Assembly (NCBI GenBank): GCA_964106915.2
Contig: OZ066914.1
DNA: 64,000 nt
Direction: 5' to 3' (one strand)
Source of the DNA: Podarcis gaigeae
Taxonomy: Eukaryota
Each line of letters opens with the position of its first letter. Positions within the stretch are counted from its first letter, which is position 1. The notes beneath the pieces are model-generated. The model was not told the DNA's origin. It was given only the letters and a program-made list of their open reading frames with translations, and made no database searches. Positions 3,301 to 48,817 of this stretch are shown one piece after another. The position numbers were made by a program, and so were the translations under genes.

Positions 3301-6300
3301 AACTCTGTAAAATTCATGTTTCGAAAAAGAAAAGAAATGCATGATATTCATGACTCTGAGGCTGAATCTGCATGTTATCTCTGCAGTATGGATGCTACAG
3401 AACCACGGTTCCACAAGTGGCTACCATGTTGTCATGGTAATGTATAAAAGCACACAATTCCATATATTGCCTAGATCACATGGGCATTTCTGTACCAGCA
3501 TCTATCTGTCCACCACGGACACGCCACTGCTGCAAGCATTACCCAAGTGTTCTAGGTAAATGATATGACCAAACTCTTCAGTACGTAACTAATGTAATGT
3601 AGAAGGAGAAAGCAATTTTTTTCCTGCAGCAGCCACACCACAGAGACCCTGTGTAAAATGATTCAGATAAATTCTGCAGCAAGTGATGTGTGACTGCTTT
3701 GCACGATTGGAATCCATGAATTTCTAGCAGGGCTGGCCTGGCATAAATATTATACGCTTTGTTTAGACTTAGTTTAGTGCATAAAAAAACAAGAAACTCA
3801 AGGCGAGTGATGCACTGAACGGTTTTGAACAGATCCCAGGCTATGACGAAACTAACTCAGAGAACCCAAGGTGGTTAGATTAGGTTGTTTATGGGTTTTG
3901 GGAGAGCAGCTTCTTTGTTCCACGTAACAAACATACCTTTAAAACCTACGGGAATTGTAGAAGCAATCGGTGATGTGGCAGGAGGGAAGTGTGGAGGGGC
4001 AGGGGCGGTTTCTAAAAATGTTTACTGGGCCAGCTCAAGTCTGTTGCATCAGCCCACATAGGGAATTGGCCTTTGTGTACATTATTGCTGTTTTAAAAAT
4101 TCAAATTTGACTGAAATGGAATCTCTAAGGAAGGAAATGACTTGAAGGGGAGGGGAGAATCTGTGTTGACAAGACATGTCAAAGGACAAGACAAGGGAGT
4201 CAGTTAATTACTCAGTTGTGGATCATATCCAATATTCTTTCACCCTTGAATAATAGCTGGACATCGCAGCAAAGTTGGTCCAACCATCAATTTTGCTTAC
4301 CCCTGCCCCTTTGCTCCTGGAGGACAGTCTGCTTTCTTTATAAATAAAAAATAAAATCACATAATGGACACCATTCTTTCTTTCCTTCCATTTAAGGAAA
4401 TATGTTTGGTATTTTTTTCCAAAGTGAAAAAACAACAATATTGCTCCAGGGAAAAGGGATTGATGGCTCCTTGTGACATCATGGGCTTCAGCCAATCAAA
4501 CTGTCCATAACTTATTTTTGTCACAAACTTAGAGGGCTATTTTGGCCACTTCAGAGATCAGCCCCTAGAAATTAAAGGTACATTTGGACAAAACGACCAC
4601 ACTACTCTAAAAATGTTACATCTGTCTCTACCCCCTTGTTTCAGTTAACTTTCATACGGGTAATAAATTAGCTGTTTTGATTAAAGAGTTTGATTAGATT
4701 TGAATGACAGAAGGGAAGAAGTGAGTTCAGCAAATATTCTCATGAAGACTGGGAGCTATGATTAGTAGTTCCAATGGTCCCACGCTGCGCCCCTGAAATA
4801 TTTTACCAACACTCTTTCCAGTCTTCATATGATACCGTATTTTTCGCTCCATAAGACACACTTTTCCCCTCTTAAAATCTAAGGGGAAATGTCTGTGCGT
4901 CTTATGGAGCGAATGTGTGGTCCATGGGGCTGGACCCGGGCTTCCCCTGCCAGCCCCGACCTGCTCTTTGAGGCTGGCCGTGGGGGAAAGCAGCGCTTCC
5001 CCCCACGGCCAGCCCCACAAGCTCGTGGAGCAGCGGGAAGGCTGCACGCCTTTCGGCTGCTCCCTGACCTGCTCTTTGAGGCTGGCGGTGGGGGAAAGAA
5101 GAACTCCCGGTGCGCTCCGGAGGCTTCAGGTTGCCTTCACGGAAGGCGACTGAACGCTCCTTGAATGCACTGAACGCACCTTGTTTTAGAGGGGGAGAAC
5201 AAGAAAAAAAAAATCTCCCCCTCTCTGCGCAGCGCCTCCTGCTGCTTCGCTGAAGGGGAGTTGCGCAGAGAGGGGGATAATTTTTTTTTCTTGTTCTCCC
5301 CCTCTAAAACAAGGTGCGTCTTATGGTCAGGTGCATCCTATGGAGCGAAAAATATGGTAATCCCCAAAACCAGAAGCTGCAGGCTACAAAACTTGATCTG
5401 CTTAGAAAATGAAAACTGATATTTTGAAATGTCAAACAGAACATTTGCAAGAACAGACTTAAAAGGTCATTATGTGATCATTGCCATTGAATCGTCTGGA
5501 ATTTATTCTAAGCCTCAGTCAAACGAAAGAGATCCTGAGCTACAAGTACAGCTCAGAAAGAAGTTGTGGTCAAATATTTAAATATCCATCAATATTGTGC
5601 ATACCAAGAGGAATTAACACTGTGGGGAGAAATCATATTTATAACTCTTTGCTTCTTTGGCAGATGTGCTTGTAAAGAAGGAATTGTTGGCTTTAGAAAT
5701 ATATATAAAATTTGTAGCTCAATTTGCTTTTGGGAAATAATGGTAAGAGACACCTCTGTATCTCTATGGAACCCCACCAAAAAGTCGTTCTTAAGAAGCA
5801 CCATGCAAAGGAAAATTAAGCATATTTAGAATTATGTGCTATGTACTGTATACGTAGAAATATTTTTTTGAAATCTAATACAAGGAGATCTTTTCTGTCA
5901 TTGATGCCTATGAGGTGCAAGTAGGGAGTCTGTTAGCAAACTGGGCATGAATGAAAGACAAGATGACATTTTAAAAAATAGGATTTTTATCTATTAATAC
6001 TGGCTACAGCAAAGCATGCCAACTTCACTTTACTTTGAGACAGAGGTCATGCAGGCTCCTTCCATATACATCATTGAAATGTGCTGCACAGCAACCATTT
6101 AAGGTCTTGCTTCTTCATTGAAAAATATAATTGCCTTTTTGTAAAATGGCAAAATAGAATTATGCACAAAAGCAGTATTAGCAGTGGCAAGATGCTGCCA
6201 AGAACTTAGTTGCATATGCTATGTTGCTTTCCCCATAAAACAGATGTGAAACAAAAGCATCTTGTGTACCAAAGAGAACATGACCATGTATGTTACCAGG

Positions 6301-10400: not shown

Positions 10401-13400
10401 GAGTCCCCTCCCTGCTAGGCCCTTCTCCGGCATCGCTTGGGAGCCCTGCCTCCACTCCTGTCTCCGATGTCAGTTCCCTGACATGGTGATAAACTGACAC
10501 TGGTCAAACGTCATGCAAGCACTGCCAAAAGACAGTCAGCACCTCTCACAGTTCTAACCACTGTCTGTGGGGTGGACTAAGGCTTGCTCTACGTCCACTG
10601 AGCTGCCACCTGAGGTGGTGCCTTCTACATATCTTGCTGCCATTATACACAGTGCCTGGGCATCCCAGGGTTCTTCTGCCTCATTCAGAGCCTTTCAACA
10701 CCAGCATCCCCTCACTCCCGGAGGAGAGTCGTGCCGGTCTGAAAACTCGGCCTGCTGGGAGAAAACTCATGGAACAAACACTTTTACACCGTGAGCATGA
10801 TAGGGCACTATGTGGGTCCTGCTTCAAGTAGCCTCCACCTGGGGGAAAATTTAGTTTGATCCAGGCCAATAGATGGCCCAGCTATTAAAACAGAAAGTGC
10901 TGAATCATCATTAGGGAGAGGAGAATACCTACGAGCTGCATATGAAGGTGGCCTTGGCCACTGGTCCAGTGTTGTGTACTCTGGCAAAGGTTGTCTGACA
11001 GCCACCTTTCATAACCCTCTTACCAGAGATCTTTAGAGGTCTCACTGCAGGGGTCTGAAGCTCAGGCCTGATGTGATAGCTCAGTTGGTGCTGATAACCC
11101 CAAGGTTGCAGGTTCAATCCCTATGTGGGACAGCTGCATATTCCTGCATTGCAGGGAGTTGGACTACAAGATCTTCAGTATCCCCTTCCAACTTTACAAT
11201 TCTATTATTTTGCGTGGCCTAGTATGGAGCAATGGCTCTTCCCTGCACCTGCCACTGTGGTGAGACAGTTTGTAAACCAGAGCCGAGTTTATTTCTCCAA
11301 GTAACAGTTCAGAAAACGCAACTGGTATAAATTAGGAACAACCGATACACCAGAGCTTCCATTTTCAAATCAGGTGGTCCTATTATTGCTGTGACAAAGA
11401 ATGCTTATTGGAGACCAGTAAATGAGTACAATGGTACCTCAGGTTACAAACTTAATTTGTTGCAGAGGTCCTTTCTTAACCTGAAGCCGTTCTTAACCTG
11501 AGGTGCGCGCTTGCTAATGGGGCCTGCTGCTGCTGCTGCACTGCCACTGCACGATTTCTGTTGTCATCCTGGGGCATAGTTTGCCACCTGAGGTACTACT
11601 TCCGGGTTAGCAGAGTTTGTAACCGGAGGTGTTTGTAACTCAAAGCGTTTGTAACCCGAGGTACCACTGTAATTAGAAATCCCCAATTATTTATCTTTCA
11701 AAGAGGAAGTACGCAGTATTTTGTAGTGCAAATACTTCCAGCCTTGCTGTGTCTACTTTTGTGATTGGGTTTGCAGCACACCAGGAGATTTATCTCTGCC
11801 AAGCCACCAGAACGGTTACTGTGCATAGAAAACAGTTTCTATTGGTGCCAGTGAGACTTTTTAAGCCTTGCAGCTGCTAGGAGGAGATTTTCAGGAGACT
11901 CTGTGACTGAAAGAAGAATGGGATAAATCTCGCCCCCATGCATCCTGCAATCCCAGTGACACTGGCTCCCCGCACTTGTAATTAAATGAAAACAAGAGAT
12001 GTAGTGCATGAAACATAGCCTGCAGCTTGGCCCCTTCAGTCTATCTAAAAAAGGCTTCCTCAAACCTGGCCCTCCAGATGTTTTGAGACTACGATTCCCA
12101 TCATCCCTGACCACTGGTCCTGCTAGCTAGGGATCATGGGAGTTGTAGGCCAAAAACATCTGGAGGGCCGAGTTTGAGGAAGCCTGATCTAGAGTCATTC
12201 CAGTCTGCAGTACTTGATATGATGATGAAGCTCCTTCACCCATAGTACAAGTATTGAATCCACCCCACCGCTTTACCTAAAAGAGCTGTTCCTCTAATAG
12301 GTTCATACCTGGTCTCCATATACATTTTGCCGAAGGCCCAACTCCACAGTACAACCCTTCATGCCACTTTCCAAAGAGGCGATGTACCACCTTTCCTTCT
12401 TGGTCCATGACAACACCTTGGACTTCATTCACGTTCGAATTCCAGTAATTCACCTAAAAAAAATAATAATGCCTTTTTCTTAACTGTTAAGGTCAATCAC
12501 CCCAGTTTCAGGTGTCTGGGTTATAACTAGGTATCAACTTTCAACAAGACCAGGCCTTCTGACAGGCAGATCTGTATCACACCCATCCAACAGCTAGGCA
12601 GTGCCAATGAGCTGCCAGAAGCGGGTGGGGAATCGGGATGATTCAGACACCACAACCTCCACCCCTTATCGTATCGTGCCAAATATCTTCAAATGCAGTC
12701 CCAAAGAGGTGCAGAGGATAAAGACCTTGCCAATGGAATTAGCATGACCGCTGGCAACCGGTGAAAGGGTCTTATATTTATCGGCCACACTTTGGTGCAC
12801 AGATTCATACAATTCATACAGCTGGTACCTCCAGCTAGTGAACATGCCTTGTGTGCTCCTAGGAGCTGCTGTGCAACGGGCCACCAATTGCACAAACACC
12901 CTTTTCACTGTTCATAATGAGTATCAAAGAAACGTTACCTTGATGAATGTGAGTTTACAAATACAAACGCTGCTTTTTGTGTTTCTGATGGTTATTTCTC
13001 CATAATGTTCTATCCATCTCCTTCCACTGAGGATGTTGTGTATGCAAGTAGTGACTTTGTTCCATACGTAGGAATCACCGTACCTGCAAAGAGAGTTAAC
13101 TGTGGAAACTGTGCTCCAAAAATGCCCTTTCCAAACCACCACCTATTCACAAATGAAACAGTACTCCCCCCTCCAGTACTGAAAGCCAATGGACCACCAA
13201 CAGAACTCAAATATGAAAATACCCACACTTTTTACATGTATTTGTGTCCTGCTAGGGGCATAACTGTCAACCTTTCCCTTTTTTTTAAGGGAAATTCCCT
13301 TATTCCGAATAGGATTCCTCGGAAGAAAAGGGAAAAGTTGACAGCTATGGCTAGGGGTTGAATTGCAAATCAATTAGAACAATAAATAATTTAAAACCAG

Positions 13401-13955: not shown

Positions 13956-16900
13956 CCTTCTGCCAGACATCATAGTATGTGTTTTCCTACTACGGTTACA
14001 TTGGTTCCGCACAGTATTATATAAAAAAACCTGTTTTGTCCTCAAAATAACTCTATTAAGTAGATTAGGCCAAGAAATTGCGAGTTGCCCAAAGCCCCAC
14101 ATTGAGCTTCATGGTTCATTAGAGTTTTGAACTCAGTTCTCCCCAACTTTTAAGCCCATTATGCTGTTAATTCCACTGGACTTGTTCTGAATGAAACAAG
14201 ATGAGATGAGCAGAGTAACTGCAGGATTAGCTGACCAACTGCAAAGAAACTGCAGGAGGTACACATTGCAGGACAGTAATACTTTCCCAAGCTTCCTTGC
14301 ACTGAAACAGGACTCACCCTTACCTGCCACACTCTATAGGTAAGAGTTCATGTCATCGTGAAACCTCATGTTTTACAAGAACACACCTCATTTTGAGTTA
14401 CCATGATGCCTCTCACCTTTTTCCTCCTAGGGGAAATCCGAACAATTTTTACCAAAAAAAGGAATATGCTTCCTTTTACTGTGCAAAGCAAACACAGTAC
14501 TAAAACATCTCTCACTCAGGAAGCTGCTGTGAATTAACTAGCCTAATGTTCACAACTGTTTGATCAAACATAGTTGCAGCATCTAATAATAGGAGGTAGA
14601 GCAAGTAATTATTCAGAGATCCCAGTTGCCTTATCACTACATGCAAGCTGCTGCTATGTGCTCCCTGCCTTGTCTGGCTTCAGTTTTGCTACATTATTCA
14701 TCAGTGTGCATCTGGGACTTGAAGTGCCTAAATTAGTCTCATGGAACTGCTTTTCCAGAATGAAGAAGAAACAAACAAACAAACAGGAAAAGAATGGAGA
14801 AGCTGCTTACTTTGGAAGCGTGACATTCAGTGTTCCGATTGGCAGTATTTCCATTGACTTGCCCCAGAATTTGTTTTTCCACCTGATATCTGAATAACAT
14901 AGCAAAGATTCAGAAAGCTGCAAATTACAGAAGTTCTACAAATGCAACAAACCATTATTTGTCTTTGTCTAATACGAAAGTCCTAAAACAGCAGGCTTCA
15001 CAATTATATTAACCTTTTCGTTAAATTCCACAAAAATGAAACTATGCATGTAATTGTAAGTTTTCTTTTTTTAAAAAAAAAACAAAAACAAAAACAGAAC
15101 TAAATTGGTCTTTAGGCTTCTGAATTAAAATGTATACCTTGCCAAAACACAAAATTCTTTGATTCACAGTGACAGGCAGAAATGGGTGGGTGGTGGCTAA
15201 CCTGAAATAAAAAATTACGGTGGTGAGGAATTGTTGCAAAAGACTTTCATTTTTATCATCACTGTAACAGACACCTTACATAAAAGAGAGATGATGGAGC
15301 AGCAGAAAAAGCTACTGCTATTCTAGGCTGCATCAACAGAAGTATAGTATCCCAATCAAGGGAAGTAATAGTACCGCTCTATTTTGCCTTGATCAGACCC
15401 CACCAGTAATATTGTGTGCATTTCTGGGCACCACAATTTAAGAAGGATATTGACAAGCTGGAACTTGTGCAGAGGTGAGTGTCCATGATGATCAAGACTC
15501 TGGAAACCTACCCTTATGAGGAACAGTTGAGAGAGTTTAGTCTGGAAAAGAGGAGACTGAGAGGAGATATGATAGCCATCTTCAATTATCTGAAGGGCTG
15601 TCACAGGGAAGATGGAGCAAGCCTGTGTTCTTCTGCTCCGAAGGCTGGTATCCGAACCAACAGATTCAAGTTACAAAAAAGGAGATTCCAACGAAACATC
15701 AGGAAGAACTTTCTGACAGGAAGGGCTGTTCAATAGAAACAGATCCCACAAGAGATGGTGGACTCTCCTTCCTTGGAAGTTTTTAAGCAGAGATTGTATG
15801 GTGATGCGTCATGTAGGATCTAGTTGAGATTCCTGCATAGAATCATAGAAATATAGAACTGCAAGGGACCCTGAGGATCATCTAGTTTAGGCATCCCCAA
15901 ACTCGGCCCTCCAGATGTTTTGGAACCACAACTCCGACCATCCCTAGCTAACAGGACCAGTGGTCAGGGATGATGGGAACTGTAGTCCTAAAACAGCTGG
16001 AGGGCCGAGTTTGGGGGTGCCTGATCTAGCTCAACCCCCTACAATGCAGGGATATGCAGCTGTCCCATATGGGGATTGAATCAGCACCACACTCTAACCA
16101 ACTGAGCTATCCAGAAACTTGGACCATTACAGGGAGCTGGGCCATCAGGGTCCCTTCCAGCTCCACAGTTCTAGGATTCTATGATTTCTGCAAAACTGGA
16201 TTCAGCTTTACAATGCTGAATTGCACCTAATGCTTGAAAAACAAATATATATCTTCAAATCCATTTTAAAAGGTATATATTTAGATTCATATTGGCCAAC
16301 ATTCTGAAAATAAGATGAAATGCATCAACCAAAATAAACAAATAAATCACAAATTAAAGCCACGGTGCTATTTGAGGGTCTCTTTTGGAACAGATTTTAC
16401 CTGCTCCGAGAAAAAACGAAATCCTTTGTCTTCCCTAATCGATTCGTAAGTTTCACCAAGCACAGGGTTAAAAGGCTTGCTTCCAGCTCTGTAGTAAGTG
16501 GAGGCATATCCTGAAGTTGCAAAGGCAGCAATAAGGACCTAGTTAAAACAAAGTGAAAAAACTTGAGAAACAATATCCAAACAGTACTGGAGAGACTGTG
16601 CAAGCGAAAGGGTGTTTCCTTTTCTGGGTGATGGCAGCACCTTTGGTGTTAGTGCTACAGCTGCAGACAGTAAATCTGTTCTTGCAATAGCCACTGTCCC
16701 AACATAATAAAGGACAGGGAAAGTCACGCTCCAAGTGGTGCGAAGGTAGGAACGCCAATAATATCCATCCGAATCTGTTCCCAAGGCATACAGTATCCGA
16801 AGCAGGCTTAAAGATGAAGAATATATTTGCTATTTTTGTCTTGGGGTCAGAGGCAATTGTGTGGGGGAAAGAAAGGATGTGCAATCTGGAAAGCCCTTAA

Positions 16901-19900
16901 TGGCGAAACAAGTTTTTTTTTTTTTTGTGATACAAGGATCTACCCGGGGGGGGGGGGGGAGAGAGAGCTAGCACTCCCCTTTTTTGCATTTCCAGTTTGC
17001 ATCCTCCCACCTTTTCCATACTTTTACTCTAGATCGATATCCTGAGGATTTTTATTTGGGTTTTATTAGGCGCCATCCTCAGGTGCTGACAAAAAAAAAA
17101 ATAACACCAGTTAGTCGGTGATAGAAGGGGGCAGAAATGGATGTGTCTTATGCAATTAGAGAAAGCAAAGAGTACTTTCAGATCTCTGGAGAACTGTCAT
17201 CTCTACAAGCCTATTGAGAATCATCTCATATTACAATTTGGTCTGTTTTGCAGACCCGGAAAGTGGAGCACCACTCCTGTGTACAGGAATATAATGGAAG
17301 CAGTCCGCCTGGAATCCTCCCCTCCCCCCCCCATTCATGCCATCTTGAAAGTTGTCTTGAGCAAAAGCATTCCTAGCGGGGCTTGCAGAGTGGAATTCCC
17401 CAGCGATTTGCTCATTGCACAGAAAAGGGTAATATAGGGATGTGGCTACAGCTTTGGAATTCACAGGTCTGACAAAATAGACAGACAAGTGAGTGATCAC
17501 TCTCTGCAACAGAGGCTCTAGTGGTTTTTTAAACTACTTATTTCCCTTTAGAATCGCTCAAGAGGCTTATACCAAGTGCCTTCTCTTGCATTACCTTAGC
17601 AGTGTGGCCGCTACGGTAGCATCACTCCTTTCCACACTGTGAAGGTAGCGTCAAAAGTTTCAAACCATGTAGCACCTGAAACTCCTAATCTCAGGGTTGA
17701 GGGTTCAAACCACACACTGGGCAAAATGTGGATTCCGGCACTGCAGGGGGTTGGACCAGATGACCTTTGCGGTCCCTTCCAACTCTATGGTCTTACGATT
17801 CTATGTGGGAGGAGCCCATACTGTAGAGTCCTTAGATTACTTCATCATACTAGTATTGCCCTGTTTGGAAAGCAAGGCAATGAGGGGGGAAGGGGGGGGA
17901 AACAACAATATGAGCTCTTCCCACATGAGCTGGGTCTCCTGGCAAAAGGATGTCCGTGAGCAGCTTCCATACCACAAAGGTAATGTGAGACTGGACCCTA
18001 AGACTCACTATAACACGTATGCAAGTTCATTCATCCAAATTTATACTGCTCCTGCAAGGCTCCACTTATGTGAGCAGTTATCTGCAGAGATATAGCCAGC
18101 CAAGGACCATCTATACTGGTTATAAGAAAGTACGCCAACGAAAGGAACAGGCTGGAAAAAAAGTAAAAAAATCCTTTATGTCAGAATCTAGCTGCTTTCA
18201 CGCTAGAGGTGAGGTTAAAGGTAAAGGTAAAGGTACCCCTGCCCATACGGGCCAGTCTTGACAGACTCTGGGGTTGTGCGCCCATCTCACTTAAGAGGCC
18301 AGGGGCCAGCGCTGTCCAGAGACACTTCCGGGTCACGTGGCCAGCGTGGCAAAGCTGCATCTGGCGAGCCAGAGCCGCACACGGAAACGCCGTTTACCTT
18401 CCCGCTGGTAAGCGGTCCCTATTTATCTACTTGCACCCGGAGGTGCTTTCGAACTGCTAGGTTGGCAGGCGCTGGGACCGAGCAGCGGGAGCGCACCCCG
18501 CCACAGGGATTCGAACCGCCGACCTTTCGATCGGCAAGTCCTAGGCGCTGAGGCTTTAACCCACAGCGAGGTTACAATAATGGAAAATGCACAAATGTAC
18601 AGTGGACCCTCTAGTTATGTACCGCTCTGGATACATAACTTTCAGGTTACGAACGCGGCAAACCCAGAAGTGTATGCTTCCGGGTTTCATCGCGCGCATG
18701 CGCAGAAGCGCTCTGCACACCGTGGGCATGAGCAGAAGTGGCGCTTCTGCCTACGGACTTTTTGGGTTGTGGACAGACCCCCAGAACAAATTTAATTCGT
18801 ATCCGGAGGGTCCACTGTATGCAATATTAGAGCTTTAGGAGAGGGATAAACACATGAAGGGACATGCAAGGGCGTGCTCCGTCTGGTTTACTACCATTCG
18901 TTCGTAGGGGTCATCAGATTCAGCAGCCTTGTCCAAGAGTTCACTGTATTCCAGTTCCTCACAAAGGTGTTGCAATGTATTCAGAGGCTCGTTTAGCTCT
19001 ACCGGCATGGATACTTTTGAGAGATCCTTCCCGATATTGTTCCTCAAAATGTTCCACAGGTTGATATTACTAGTATCAGGGCAGGGGGTCGGGAGGCACG
19101 TCCTTCGTCCATTTCTGAAAGCACCACCGGTCAGCTCATCATTAAGTACTGGAAGGGAAACAGCAGAACAGCAGGGATGTGAAATCCTTTCACTGACTGA
19201 TAAACGAAAAATAAAATGGTTTGTATCCAGTGCTAGCTGTACTCAAAGTAAACCCACTGAATTTCATAGGTATGACTAACTTAGGCCCATTCATTTCAAA
19301 GGGTCTGTTGTTGTTATAGATTTATTTATACCCCACCTTTTTCCCTGACAGGACTCAAGGCGGTTTACAGATAAAAAGAAGGACCGCTAAAAACACAGAA
19401 AAAAACATTGTAAGAAAACAACTATAAACATTGAAAGAATTAAAATTATATACATATAATGAAATCTACTAAAACCATAGAAATAACTACAGTAAAAAAC
19501 AGAAGGAAGAGTGCTATTCTACAGTTAACAGGGATAAAAATGTAAAAGTGGCCCTCGCTGACTTGAGTTGCATCCAGAGATGGTTCTGATTTATATGTGC
19601 ACCAACCACACCTAAAAAGAACACTTATTTTCTAAAACTTAAAAAAAACAACCCTGCATACATTGCCGAGAAACGTTGTCTGCAACACTGGTGTTGTCTT
19701 CTGATATGTTGTCACTCACGTCACTGATGTACGACTCATCATCAGAAGCCTAAAGAAGAAAACAAAGAGATTTAAATGAAAAGCAAATGGAAGCAGAGGA
19801 GGAGGAGGAGGAGGAAGAAAACAACAAGTGGAACACTAAATAGAAATGTTTTCATAAATTCAAGTCCCAGTGACGCATGTATCCTAGAGTTGTTATCAGG

Positions 19901-42000: not shown

Positions 42001-44316
42001 TTGGCAGTGCGTAAGGTCTGACACAAATTATATTCAAAGAAAGTACATTAGTTACCTTGGTCAAGATTTTATTTTTTCTATGGTATCTCATAACTTAAAT
42101 AGGATAAGATTATCAGTATANNNNNNNNNNNNNNNNNNNNNNNNNNNNNNNNNNNNNNNNNNNNNNNNNNNNNNNNNNNNNNNNNNNNNNNNNNNNNNNN
42201 NNNNNNNNNNNNNNNNNNNNNNNNNNNNNNNNNNNNNNNNNNNNNNNNNNNNNNNNNNNNNNNNNNNNNNNNNNNNNNNNNNNNNNNNNNNNNNNNTGTC
42301 TTCCCGTGTAAAAGTTGGGGTGTCTAGGCGACGTTTCGACGAGGTCTCACTCGTCATCTTCAGGCTGGTGCTTTCGGCTTCTTGTTACTGGAACAGAGCG
42401 GGATCTCAATGTTTGAGTTCCTATAAATACTGTAGAGGGGGTGTGGTGTCTAGCCTCCAATGTTCTGGGCAGAGAGGAAGTTCCCAGGCTAGTGTGCCTT
42501 TTCTTCTTTTGTTCCTTAATTACTTGAGAGATACCTTGAGTGATTTCTTGAGTGATATCCTGAGTACCACTTAGGTGGGTCATTAGGTGTGGATTAGTTG
42601 CTAAAGTCTTTGTGTCTTGACCTCTTGAACTTTGTGAAGAGTTTTCCTGAGAAGATGGCTGTATTGCACTTAGTTGTGCTTTGGCTTGGCTTCGTGTATA
42701 GGGGCGAGCTGTGGTTTTGTGGCTTGTGTCAGCCAGATCTGTGTAGGGATTGCAGGGGGGTGCAGCATCCGGAGGTGCCACCATGGATTGGCTACTGGAT
42801 GGTGTCAGTAATTCATCTGTGGAGAGGGTCTGGGTTTGGGTCTGGTGTGGTTGATTGGTGTTGGCGTTCTGTGTGCCTCTGGATCTGGTGTCAGTTTTTG
42901 TGGGGAGGGCTAATTTCCAGATGTCTGGCAAGCGGGATGTGTCGTCACGCTTGTTCATGTTGTGAGGGTGTTTCTCTATCTCGATGGCTTCCATGATTAT
43001 TCTCTTGTGGTGATGTTCCGTGTTAAAGAGCAATTTGGAATCTGCAAAATTAATTTCGTGTCCTGTTTCTTTCATGTGTTGGAAAAGAGAGGAAGTTTTT
43101 TCTTCTTTTTTGACGGCATTCTTGTGTTCTGCGATACGTGCATTTATTCGTCTGTTTGTTTGTCCAATGTACGTGGCTGGGCAGACTTTGCAGGGTATTT
43201 CATAGATCCCTTGGTTTTCCAACTGGATTTTATCCTTGGGGTTTCTGAGGATATTGGCTATTTTTTGGTTGGTGCAAAAGGCTGTTTTGATATTGTGTTT
43301 ATGGAGGATTTTGCTAATTTTATCTGTAGTGCCCTTGATATAAGGAAGGAGGGCCATGCCATTGTTTTCTTCTGTGTCTTGGTTTTTGGGGGGTGTTTCC
43401 TTTTGGATTAGCTTCGTAATCCTGTTTTGCTGGTATCCATTGGCAATTAACACATTTGAGAGATTCTGTAACTCAGTTGTCAAGTGGTCTTTGTCAGCCA
43501 GGCGTTTGGTTCTGGAGATGAGAGTCTTGGCTACGGAGTTTATTTGTGCAGGGTGGTGGTGTGATTGTGCATGTAAGTAGCGGTTGGTGTGTGTTTTTTT
43601 CTGGTAGATAGTGTGTCCTAGGGAGCCATCAGGTTTTTTGTAGATTAGGACGTCAAGGAAGGGAAGTTGGTTGTTGGCTTCTATTTCCATAGTGAATTGT
43701 ATTTTGGGGTGTAAGTTGTTGAGATGTGTGAGGAAGCTATCCAGTTTTTCCTTCCCGTGTGGCCAAATTACAAAGGTGTCGTCAACATATCTGAGCCAAA
43801 GTTTGGGTTTGTGTTCTGACTTGTCTAAAGCATTGGTTTCAAAGTGTTCCATGTACAGGTTTGCGATGACCGGTGAGAGGGGTGATCCCATAGGTGCTCC
43901 TTCTATCTGTTTGTATCTTTGTCCATTGTGGATGAAGTACGTGTTGGTTAGGCAGTGGTTGGTCAGGTCCAAGATGTATTCGGGGGGATTGTATTTGTTT
44001 TGAATAGCTGTCAAGGCTTCATTAATGGGCACTTGTGTGAAGAGAGATACAACATCGAAGCTCACAAGTAGGTCATTAGGATGTAGGTTTTGCTTCTTTA
44101 TTGTTTCTATGAACTGGAAGGAGTTTGGTACGTGTGAAGAGATGGATTCTGCATAGGGATCCCGCTCTGTTCCAGTAACAAGAAGCCGAAAGCACCAGCC
44201 TGAAGATGACGAGTGAGACCTCGTCGAAACGTCGCCTAGACACCCCAACTTTTACACGGGAAGACACCCGAGGACACCAAAACCTGCATTCCTGTACCCG
44301 TGAAAATCTACGAAAG

Positions 44317-44354
<38 letters not shown>

Positions 44355-45954
44355 TGCTACGCTTTCCATAGGCATAAAAAGTTATGCCCTAAATGAGGGA
44401 CTCAACATATAATCCCTGTACTCTTTTAATCTTCTTAATCCAAGAACAGCCAACACGGTGCTCTCCAGATAATGAACTATAAATCCCATCAGAGCGACCC
44501 TTAATTTCATAGGGTATACTTTGAGTAAAAGTTACTTGACTACAACCCAACATGCTGGATGTAAATAATTAGGCAAAAGAAAGCTAAAAGCACATTCCTC
44601 GCCAATTCCTTTTAATTCTTGAACTGGATTTTCATTGGGCTAGGCAATCCACCCCCCCAAATCTTGATTAGCTGTTTTATAAAGATCAGCAGTTCAATAT
44701 ACTGCCGTAATGGCCAGCAAGTAGCCATACCTCTGCCATGACTCATCTTCATCAGATAAAAAGCACTCAGAATATAGGTTGGTTAAATCTCCATTTTCTG
44801 TTAACTGTCAACTTATTGAGTATTGTAAGGGGGGTGGGAATATGTGTTATCGTCCCTGAAGCTGCTGTGACATCTTGGTTGGTGGAATCCAGTCTCAGAT
44901 CAGCTTAGCCAAGAGAACATGTGCTGTGAAATGGGCTCAAGAAGTTGGCTGTCCATTGTCTATTCTAGACCACATTTTGGGTCCCCAGCTGTTGTTGGAC
45001 TACAACTCCCATCAGCCCCAAGCCCAGGTCTTGTTACCTAGGAATGATGCCAGCTGTAGTCCAACAACAGCTGGGAAGCCAAGTTTGAGAAACACTGGCT
45101 AGACCAAGCATCCCCAAACTCAGCCCTCCAGCTGTTTTGGGACTAAAGTTCCCATCATCCCTGACCACTGGTCCAGTTAGCTAGGGATGATGGGAGTTGT
45201 AGTCCCAAAACAGATGGAGGGCCGAGTTTGGGGGTCCCTGGGCTAGACCATTCGCAGCATGCCATAAAAACTACAGATATAACATTAAAAACTAATCAGG
45301 AACCCTCATTTGTTTGTTTTTTTAAATAGCTCCCAGATACCTTGACACAAACTAGACAGATTTAGAAAAAGGCTAGTGCCAAACAACATTAACCTCCATT
45401 TTTAACCTGAAAGCCACCATAGGCAGGATTCATTGTGACCAGAAGTACCAACAGATTGCCCTTATTATTTTTTTATTGTATTAGTTATTAAATTCATATG
45501 CTACCCTTCATCCGAAAAGCACAGAGTGGTTTACAACATAAAAACACAAAATACATATTAGCAAAAAACAGTAAATCCACTGTTATAGGGAAATATGAAT
45601 ACTACATATTTAAAGCCCTAAATGGCCTCAGTCCTATATACCTAAAGGAGCATTTCCACCCCCATCATCCAGCCTGGACACTGAGGTCCAGCGCCGAGGG
45701 CTTTCTGGTGGTTCCCTCACTATGAGAAGTGAGGTTACAGGGAACCAGGCAGAGGGCCTTCTCGCCTGCCCTGTGGAACGCCCTCCCAGCAGATGTCAAG
45801 GCAATAAACAACTATTTTACTTTTAAAAGACAACTGAAGGCGGCCCTAAAAGGGAAGTTTTTAATGCCTGATGCTGTATTGTTTTGTATATTCAGTGGAA
45901 GCCACCCAGAGTGGCTGGGGAAACCCAGCCAGATGGGTGGGGTATAAATATTAA

Positions 45955-46001
<47 letters not shown>

Positions 46002-47329
46002 TGGGAACTATCTATTAGCCAGAAGCTGAGTACCTATAAATGGAAGGAAAGAAGCTTGACTAGAGACTGACCTTCCGCACACCTGTCCATCTCCTCGGAG
46101 TCTTGCAACCAAGCAACTACTTTACTTTGGCCAGTGGTACATGTTGCGGGGAGGCTGTTGCTGCAGGTAATTGATGGCTGCCATGGGAAATTATTCTGTG
46201 CGACCTAAAAAAAACAACCCAAAGATTCGAAAATTGTATAACTGAATACCGGGAGAAAAATGGCCTGTGCTAAAATCAAACCATCAGACAAGAAACAAAT
46301 GATATCCCATTTGAAAGAAGGCAAGCAAGTATGAATTCAGCACCTTAGCCCAGTGGTTCACAAACTCACCACCACCACCATGGACTGCTTGAAAATTGAT
46401 GGTGATCTTGGTTTTTCTGCCTGTTGTAACAATTGTAATGCACTGTGCTGGGTGCTACATTGTTTTTAAACGTATTTTTATTGTGTCCTTTCTTTCTAAT
46501 AATGTATTTTATTGTAATACAATTTGCATTCCATAGGATTAAAACTGTGATACAATAAAATACAATGAACAGAACGAAATAAGCAATAAAAATACAATTA
46601 AAAATGATGGTGTATATCAAATGTGGACATGCCGCAAACCACCTGACCCAAGCTTGTGGTCCACTGGCGGATGACAGTTTGGGAGCCCCTTCTCTAGTCC
46701 AAATAAAACATCAATAACAAGCAGTTCAGCAAAAGTGGTAAAATCTGGGACTTATTCAGCTTCCTCTTCTCTTCACTTCACTAGTGCTATCAATAATGGC
46801 ACACATTTCCTAACGGAGGACAATGGTTAGAAAATGTGGTGGATTATTAAACAAGTATCTTCCGATCAGGGACGTTTTATACCTTGGCCTCCAGGGCAGC
46901 AACATTAGCAGCTGGTGAAGATTCAGTAGTTGACGCTGAAGGGAATATGTGGAATCCGGCATCTCGTGGTGATCGTACAATCTCGTTCTGACGGTATAAC
47001 CTGTGGTGGCGCAGCCTCGATACCCAAGCATCAAACGAGTCCTGGGATTTTACCTAGTGAGAACGGGGAGCTCAGTAATAGTATCTGACTGTTTCAAATT
47101 GAGAAGAAAACTAATGGGAAGCATTCCTTACTTTCAAATGGTAAATATGCTCTTCAGTGTCAAGGTCTATCCTCCGAGTTTTCTTTTTAATCGACATAAC
47201 TGATAAGCCAACATCTATGCTTCCGTGAACCTTTCCTTTCTGAGTCTGAAAAATAAAAATGAAGAGAAAACATTGCCAATGAGCTGGGAAAAATAAGGTC
47301 ATTTATTTATTTAAGTATTTATATATCAC

Positions 47330-47376
<47 letters not shown>

Positions 47377-48817
47377 TCATTTATACCCCGCCCATCTGGC
47401 CGGGCCTCCCCAGCCACTCTGGGCGGCTTCCATAGAAACCAAAAATACAGTAAAATATCACACGTTAAAAACTTCCCTGAACAGGGCTGCCTTAAGATGT
47501 CTTCTGAATGTCAGGTAGTTGTTTATCGCTTTGACATCTGCTGGAAGGGCGTTCCACAGGGCGGGCGCCACTACCGAGAAGGCCCTCTGCCTGGTTCCCT
47601 GTAGCTTTGCTTCTCCGCAATGAGGGAACCGCCAGAAGGCCCTTGGCGCTGGACCTCAGCGTCCGGGCAGAACGATGGGGGATATATTTTATATAAAATA
47701 TATATATATAAGTGGCTTACAACGTTAAAAAAGATAAAAACCATACAATAAAATTTATGGTGCCCAATTGAAATATGTTGTTTACTAGGTCAGAAACATC
47801 AGAAAATATTATTAGATGGGGAGAAAACGAAAGCATCATTTTTCTGGAAAGGGAATCATGAAGATAGGAATGCATTGCCCTCTGATTTCCTAATAAACAC
47901 TTTCTCCGTGACTAATTCTAAAAAAGGCTTTATTTCATATGCTACATTAACATATATTAGAATCTCTGCTTGCTATAGACCACACGCTAAAAGCTGCAGA
48001 AAATAAAAGAAAATTAAAAGATATAACTAAATAGTCCTTCACCAAACAAAACATTCTTCTCCTTTCTTTCTACATCAATCATCATCAAAGGAAATATTAA
48101 TTATAATATTGGATTTTTATAATGTTACCTTTTAAAAAAATGCTCCAGTATTACTTACATCAATTGGCGACTTTGAATATTTCAACATTCCGTTATCCAG
48201 GACAAAAAAGCGCTACGGGGGGAAAAAACAATTTGTAAGAGGTCAAATAAAATCTGGCATATGTAAAATAATATATCTAATGAAGACAAATGCCTGTTCC
48301 TCGTGGTTACCAAATAATGAGCACACAGCAGAAACCATGCTGACAAGAGATCTTGCTTCCATTCCGTAGCCTAGATATGAGGCTTAGCCACTAAACTTTA
48401 TATGCCTTACAGCAGGGCTGAGGAACCTGGGGCCCAGGAGTTGAACACAGGACTCTGTGCCTTTTTATCTGGCTCTCAGGACTGTTCCCAGCCTAGATGT
48501 CATCTCCTCCTCAGCCCTGCTCTACTCTCAACTCAAGTGCTTTTGTCTGGCTGGAATGCGTCCTTGAAATATGCTCTACCCACACCTCTGACTCCATCCA
48601 CCACTGGCAAGTTGCCCTGTGAAGTTGCTCATGAAGAAATGCAGCTCTTGGGCTGAAGAAGGCAGACCACCCATGTCTCACAAGCATGGAGAGCAGGCAG
48701 CCCACCGCCAACTGCCATGCCCCATCTAGAACACTGGCCTTGAAGTCCAAACTATAATGGAGATGACCTAACGGCAAGCAAAAGACCTGCATACAGCACC
48801 CACTGTTACCTTCGCTC

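Follow-up and report, generated by a model that had tools for sequence, protein, structure and literature searches.

An inverted pair of L2-type LINE 3′ ends around exons 5 to 7 of OSBPL6 in a lacertid lizard, probably a recent chance juxtaposition

The closest described counterparts of the arrangement considered here are the inverted Alu pairs around the circularizing exons of ZKSCAN1, HIPK3, and EPHB4, in which same-family arms of about 300 to 350 nt lie in opposite orientation in the flanking introns, near splice sites (PMC4201285). In the primate cases of loop-out skipping, a lineage-specific insertion completes an inverted pair across exons (PMC13019027, PMC13019944). At mammalian circRNA loci, the associated repeat pairs are reported to be mostly young and species specific, and likely by-products (PMC8516420), and at zip-2 of Caenorhabditis elegans one pairing, through a match of 13 nt conserved in five nematodes, could drive back-splicing as well as skipping (PMC8330042).

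The pair at lizard OSBPL6 shares something with each of these. It resembles the three Alu loci in the size, kinship, and placement of its arms, and its putative 418-nt circle is comparable in size to the 360-nt EPHB4 circle (PMC4201285). However, it is made of lizard LINE 3′ ends, spans three exons, has a short upstream intron, and is known from DNA. As in the primate cases, a lineage-specific insertion completes the pair, but the putative skip would remove three exons and would be out of frame. Like the loci of PMC8516420, it has at least one young arm that is absent in a close relative, surrounds constitutive exons, and is best read as giving by-products, although that study was built on sequenced mammalian circRNAs and ours on the layout of DNA in a reptile. 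As at zip-2, a single pairing could serve both outcomes; unlike the zip-2 match, the lizard pair is not conserved. Judged by titles and the beginnings of abstracts, in an incomplete coverage of the literature, we found no report of a LINE-driven circRNA in a lizard or other reptile or of an OSBPL6 circle, and supplementary tables of mammalian studies might list OSBPL6 circles. OSBPL6 appears in PMC7680858 only as an mRNA and an lncRNA.

Exons 5 to 7 of OSBPL6 and the two arms

The window, by which we mean the whole 64,000-nt stretch that was analyzed, comes from a lacertid lizard genome of 1.51 Gb and carries OSBPL6 between 53372 and about 7300, with the gene running on the minus strand. A sequence-only reading had already named this gene, and the identification was borne out by exon mapping with tblastn and by the translation of exon 6, which is 100% identical to Lacerta and Podarcis (lacertid) OSBPL6 proteins. 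The exons that matter here are all coding and all on the minus strand. Exon 4 (48212-48159) and exon 8 (42017-41914), placed by tblastn and their boundaries, would provide the donor and the acceptor of a hypothetical skip junction. Between them lie exon 5 (47245-47132, 114 nt, PH domain), exon 6 (47053-46883, 171 nt, placed by protein identity and boundaries), and exon 7 (46204-46072, 133 nt, placed by tblastn and boundaries), separated by introns 4, 5, 6, and 7 of 913, 78, 678, and 4054 nt. The splice boundaries of exons 4 to 8 are all canonical AG/GT. In particular, the loop includes the acceptor AG at 47246 and the donor GT at 46071, so that 47245 is the putative back-splice acceptor and 46072 the putative donor. 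The mapped boundaries agree with the sizes given earlier, 114 + 171 + 133 = 418 nt, with 418 mod 3 = 1. The description of this block as the PH-domain region held for exon 5 and the first part of exon 6, which encode the domain (residues about 92 to 179), and not for the remainder, which is linker; the PH_8 match has an E value of 0.0075, which taken by itself falls short of the curated cut-off.

When the window was compared with itself by BLAST, 45659-45999 aligned with 47681-47332 on the minus strand at 81.6% identity over 353 columns (E 6e-92), in agreement with the claim that two L2 3′ ends lie in opposite orientation around exons 5 to 7 and are reverse-complementary over some 300 nt. The upstream arm (47330-47681, minus strand, sense to OSBPL6) is a 5′-truncated L2-type LINE 3′ end of 352 nt that we assign to a young subfamily, with a (TTA)n tail at about 47330-47376. 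The downstream arm (45605-45999, plus strand, antisense to OSBPL6) is an L2-type LINE 3′ end, apparently of an older subfamily, with a 9-nt internal deletion and its tail at about 45955-45999. The tails do face inwards and are able to pair, with 46 nt at 100% complementarity, and the distances of about 84 and 73 nt first proposed were correct: 84 nt separate the end of the upstream arm from the exon 5 acceptor, and 72 to 73 nt separate the exon 7 donor from the downstream arm. A 27-mer quoted in the sequence-only reading sits in the arm pair at 45724-45764 and 47575-47615. One qualification to the pairing described there is that 45605-45658 has nothing to pair with, since the upstream copy ends at its truncation point, 47681. 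Inspection by eye revealed no clear target-site duplication at the arms.

Both arms are 5′-truncated 3′ ends of a non-LTR retrotransposon (LINE) with a simple-repeat tail. Longer relatives (L007 and L004), 96% identical to the upstream copy, encode RVT_1 (E 2.6e-37 and 8.6e-29) in frames of 405 to 466 residues. The clade is likely L2 rather than CR1, a label that draws on the C-terminal motif, which we take to be that of L2, and on the type of tail. That tail is a 3-nt repeat, unlike the octamer of amniote CR1 (PMC4316615), and L2 ranks among the three LINE families that are both abundant and active in squamates (PMC6050309). The earlier assignment of the arms to L2-type 3′ ends is thus likely right. 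No labeled L2 or CR1 reference was present among the 120 matches listed, and the 10 Rfam matches were all far under gathering scores, none of them a LINE 3′ element. Among relatives of the family, L037, L038, and L043 (G000:C32) are 97 to 99% identical over 2.5 to 3.3 kb including flanks, which suggests segmental or tandem duplication.

The complementarity of the arms far exceeds that of random sequence, yet it is at the level expected of two members of one abundant family. The upstream copy has relatives at 97% on several other contigs of the same genome and differs from the majority of six close copies at 6 of 303 columns. For the downstream copy, with 6684 first-look candidates, the closest other genomic copies are 90% identical, and it departs from the young-subfamily majority at 60 of 302 columns. 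By these differences the two arms are members of separate subfamilies, and their complementarity would for that reason reflect family ancestry.

Several other repeats lie in the window. On the minus strand within intron 7, 42297-44266 holds a stop-free frame of 634 residues with RVT_1 (E 4e-13) and a weak GIY-YIG match (E 5e-4, under cut-off), in an element that we presume to be Penelope-like. A 115-nt inverted repeat at 98% (42297-42411 and 44152-44266) forms its ends, and it adjoins a stretch of N at 42121-42296; the element seems young and might fold into a hairpin of its own within intron 7. Self-palindromic, MITE-like repeats of about 150 nt are found at 44977-45247, 15881-16030, 12044-12193, and 5174-5319, of which the first three match one another across introns. 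Within the loop of the pair, intron 6 has at about 46340-46660 a repeat that is rich in AT and palindromic in part, and whose copy depth is very high in DNA runs from relatives. Finally, six copies of a Sauria-SINE-like repeat, each about 350 nt, lie at 18222, 21288, 22083, 23482, 53617, and 63243, all sense to OSBPL6, with a tail matching the motif given in PMC13295347. In control DNA such copies are divided 44 plus to 46 minus (n = 90), and six of six in one orientation has a p of about 0.03, calculated after the fact.

Predicted duplex and its putative products

In a predicted fold of 2111 nt of pre-mRNA, 300 of the 352 bases of the upstream arm pair with the downstream arm across the exons, in helices of up to 46, 42, 32, and 28 bp. 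The duplex has a predicted energy of -513 kcal/mol, which becomes -459 kcal/mol when the tails are left out; pairing of the splice-site regions within the loop was disregarded as unreliable. No further copy of the family's 3′ end occurs in the window, and neither flanking intron contains a same-family competitor. At the level of DNA, the locus thus has what is expected where repeats drive circRNA formation, namely, the arms, canonical splice sites, and freedom from intra-intron competition. It lacks what would mark a conserved regulatory RNA structure, the presence of both arms in related species, with the upstream arm missing from one run of one relative (organism G, below).

The putative circle would be 418 nt long. 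Its longest reading, of 142 residues, ends at a stop shortly past the junction, which rules out an endless frame. A skip from exon 4 to exon 8 would be out of frame, as had been predicted, with an early stop at nucleotides 55 to 57 of exon 8, which is 47 nt before the next junction. Under the usual rule for NMD, a premature stop leads to decay when further junctions lie beyond it. Since many junctions follow the exon 8 stop, decay of the putative skip transcript is to be expected. None of the 24 runs considered is recorded as RNA; 18 are guessed to be, and these come under other organism codes than the best DNA run. In two of the 18 (X10 and X4), the contigs aligned to 45990-47340 were all of the intron 6 repeat, with none on the exons, an outcome that may come from filtering and speaks neither for nor against the putative products; these organisms may also be without the pair. 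Peptides from the frameshifted skip or the circle were found in none of the 190 proteins of the OSBPL6 searches, which comprise the best 120 of about 1000 matches per search and represent a kind of record in which such products are rarely annotated. Among 180 OSBPL6 proteins with exons 3 and 8, 169 fully retain exons 5 to 7 and none is without all three, in a set biased by the many members that were found with exon 6.

Age of the pair and chance expectation

The comparison of species lacking one copy, suggested at the outset, has been made in part. In run X22 of organism G, which differs from the window by about 1 to 2%, a contig of 2059 letters (depth 12.1) fits 46413-47340 at its letters 1-913 with 16 differing letters, and 47716-48300 at letters 934-1519 with 7. 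We treat these two records as a single contig given their equal length, depth, and strand and their consecutive coordinates. Where the window has 1303 nt the contig has 933, and once 15 internal gap letters are subtracted the contig is 355 nt short, compared to 352 nt for the element. By this one run from one relative, organism G appears to have an empty upstream site, that is, to be without the upstream copy; as an alternative to a recent gain, G may have lost the copy precisely, or lineage sorting may be responsible. The contig starts at 46000 and so does not cover the downstream copy.

For organism F (X21), one contig ceases to match the window at 47326, with 19 of its letters still to come, suggesting an empty upstream site there too, and another extends 38 letters beyond 46000 towards the downstream tail, suggesting that the downstream copy is present. 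Across 47655-48300, X21 has no contig and X24 has only a repeat piece. In X19, with 0 differences and possibly from the source sample itself, a contig begins 30 nt within the upstream copy, as expected if that copy is present. In Anolis, polymorphic LINE insertions are plentiful and most of them are rare (PMC5389967), and the upstream copy may therefore even segregate.

How often should such a pair arise by chance? The control was 1.6 Mb of DNA in 16 blocks, two of them adjoining the window, which was itself excluded. It holds 54 copies of the LINE family of at least 40 nt, 39 of at least 100 nt, and 21 of at least 200 nt. The 100-nt class corresponds to about one copy per 41 kb and to about 37,000 in the whole genome. 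Family pairs within 2 kb were direct in 5 cases and inverted in 1, and within 10 kb direct in 9 and inverted in 2; close inverted pairs may thus be depleted, with the reservation that the numbers are small and some direct pairs are perhaps fragments of one element. An opposite-strand copy lay within 1.5 kb at 3 of 58 other family loci, three of the 58 being near-duplicates of each other. Other close opposite-strand pairs of the family were seen in the L091-L100 block (G000:C3, about 60090716-60091707) and at L049, L050, and L059, one of them 393 nt apart.

With repeats of any kind and gaps of 100 to 2000 nt, the 1.6 Mb yielded 12 inverted pairs versus 14 direct at thresholds of at least 150 nt and 75%, and 6 versus 7 at 250 nt or longer and 78%, some of them probably the terminal repeats of single transposons; the stricter class amounts to about 0.24 per 64-kb window. 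For the LINE family, with both arms near an exon block, the genome-wide expectation is about 7 pairs within 300 nt and about 0.4 within 100 nt, on the assumption of 350,000 exon blocks and with a 100-nt threshold picked after the fact. The bracket at OSBPL6 is therefore a rare tail event of near-ideal geometry that is still compatible with chance.

Competing explanations and meaning

We think it probable that the pair consists of two independent chance insertions of an abundant LINE family and that its duplex yields at most low-level, unselected by-products. The older antisense copy, judging from its subfamily, would have come first, in intron 7, and the young sense copy would have landed later and recently in AT-rich sequence of intron 4, on the upstream side of the pyrimidine tract, which it left undisturbed, and 84 nt from the acceptor. 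We imagine that the duplex would form only in the fraction of transcripts in which the 913-nt intron 4 is still unspliced, with the paired arms then holding the exon 7 donor close to the exon 5 acceptor. Back-splicing, loop-out skipping, and A-to-I editing could follow, while normal linear splicing would dominate. A-to-I editing of the arms is the outcome that we would expect, with only mild confidence; a detectable back-splice junction has a somewhat less than even chance, and skipping above 5% seems improbable. A strong effect on splicing would likely be purged, since Alus within about 100 nt of exons are depleted by purifying selection (PMC13019027). Given the strength of the predicted duplex and the lack of a same-family competitor, the effect could nevertheless exceed what we assume.

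A bolder form of the story, which we put forward tentatively and consider doubtful, is that an L2 copy inserted very recently gave this genome one of its tightest inverted brackets and thereby switched on a lineage-specific OSBPL6 circRNA or skip-and-decay. If true, lizard L2 LINE 3′ ends would play the role of the primate Alu, and relatives with and without the insertion would be a natural knock-in test.

It is unlikely that the young insertion has created a real splicing output in this lineage, a 418-nt circRNA and/or an NMD-targeted skip that lowers OSBPL6, not yet shaped by selection. The extensive pairing of the upstream arm in the predicted fold is consistent with it, as is a skip product that stops in exon 8 with many junctions downstream. 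Repeats of 30 to 40 nt are enough in reporters (PMC4201285), enrichment of inverted Alus around skipped exons grows nearer the splice sites (PMC13019944), and reverse-complementary matches drive both back-splicing and skipping (PMC8330042). However, the upstream intron is just 913 nt, and back-splicing is described as slow and as requiring slowly spliced introns; the splice sites are canonical; and low-complexity tracts and G-U distortions can inhibit circularization (PMC4201285), the inner end of the stem here being a low-complexity tail.

A selected, conserved architecture that tunes OSBPL6 by circRNA or by skip and NMD is very improbable. The bracket is tight and symmetric, and such closeness is rare. 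The upstream arm is nonetheless absent from a relative only about 1 to 2% different, each arm belongs to a subfamily of its own and the two differ accordingly, and the biased set of OSBPL6 proteins retains all of exons 5 to 7 in 169 of 180 members and lacks all three in none. An assembly artefact or a local inverted duplication in place of two insertions is less probable still: although the only DNA runs covering nearly the whole stretch (X19 and X20) may be from the source sample, the arms are closer to dispersed copies (97% and 90%) than to one another (82%), and the X19 contig starts inside the upstream copy.

The proposal that had drawn attention to this pair was of a circRNA and multi-exon-skipping architecture. 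Its layout is as described, but a chance juxtaposition is favored over an evolved design, and a recent one, because organism G appears to be without the upstream copy and the arms are of different subfamilies. In kind the pair is ordinary, a lineage-specific counterpart of two inverted Alus, likely recent and unselected. For now it amounts to what an active LINE family ordinarily leaves behind in a genome rich in repeats, and its value is the natural comparison of presence and absence between close relatives. If a circle or skip were found only in carriers of the upstream copy, the locus would show, in a clear comparison of the states before and after insertion, a transposon creating a splice product outside mammals, and would support the view of such RNAs as by-products of young insertions.
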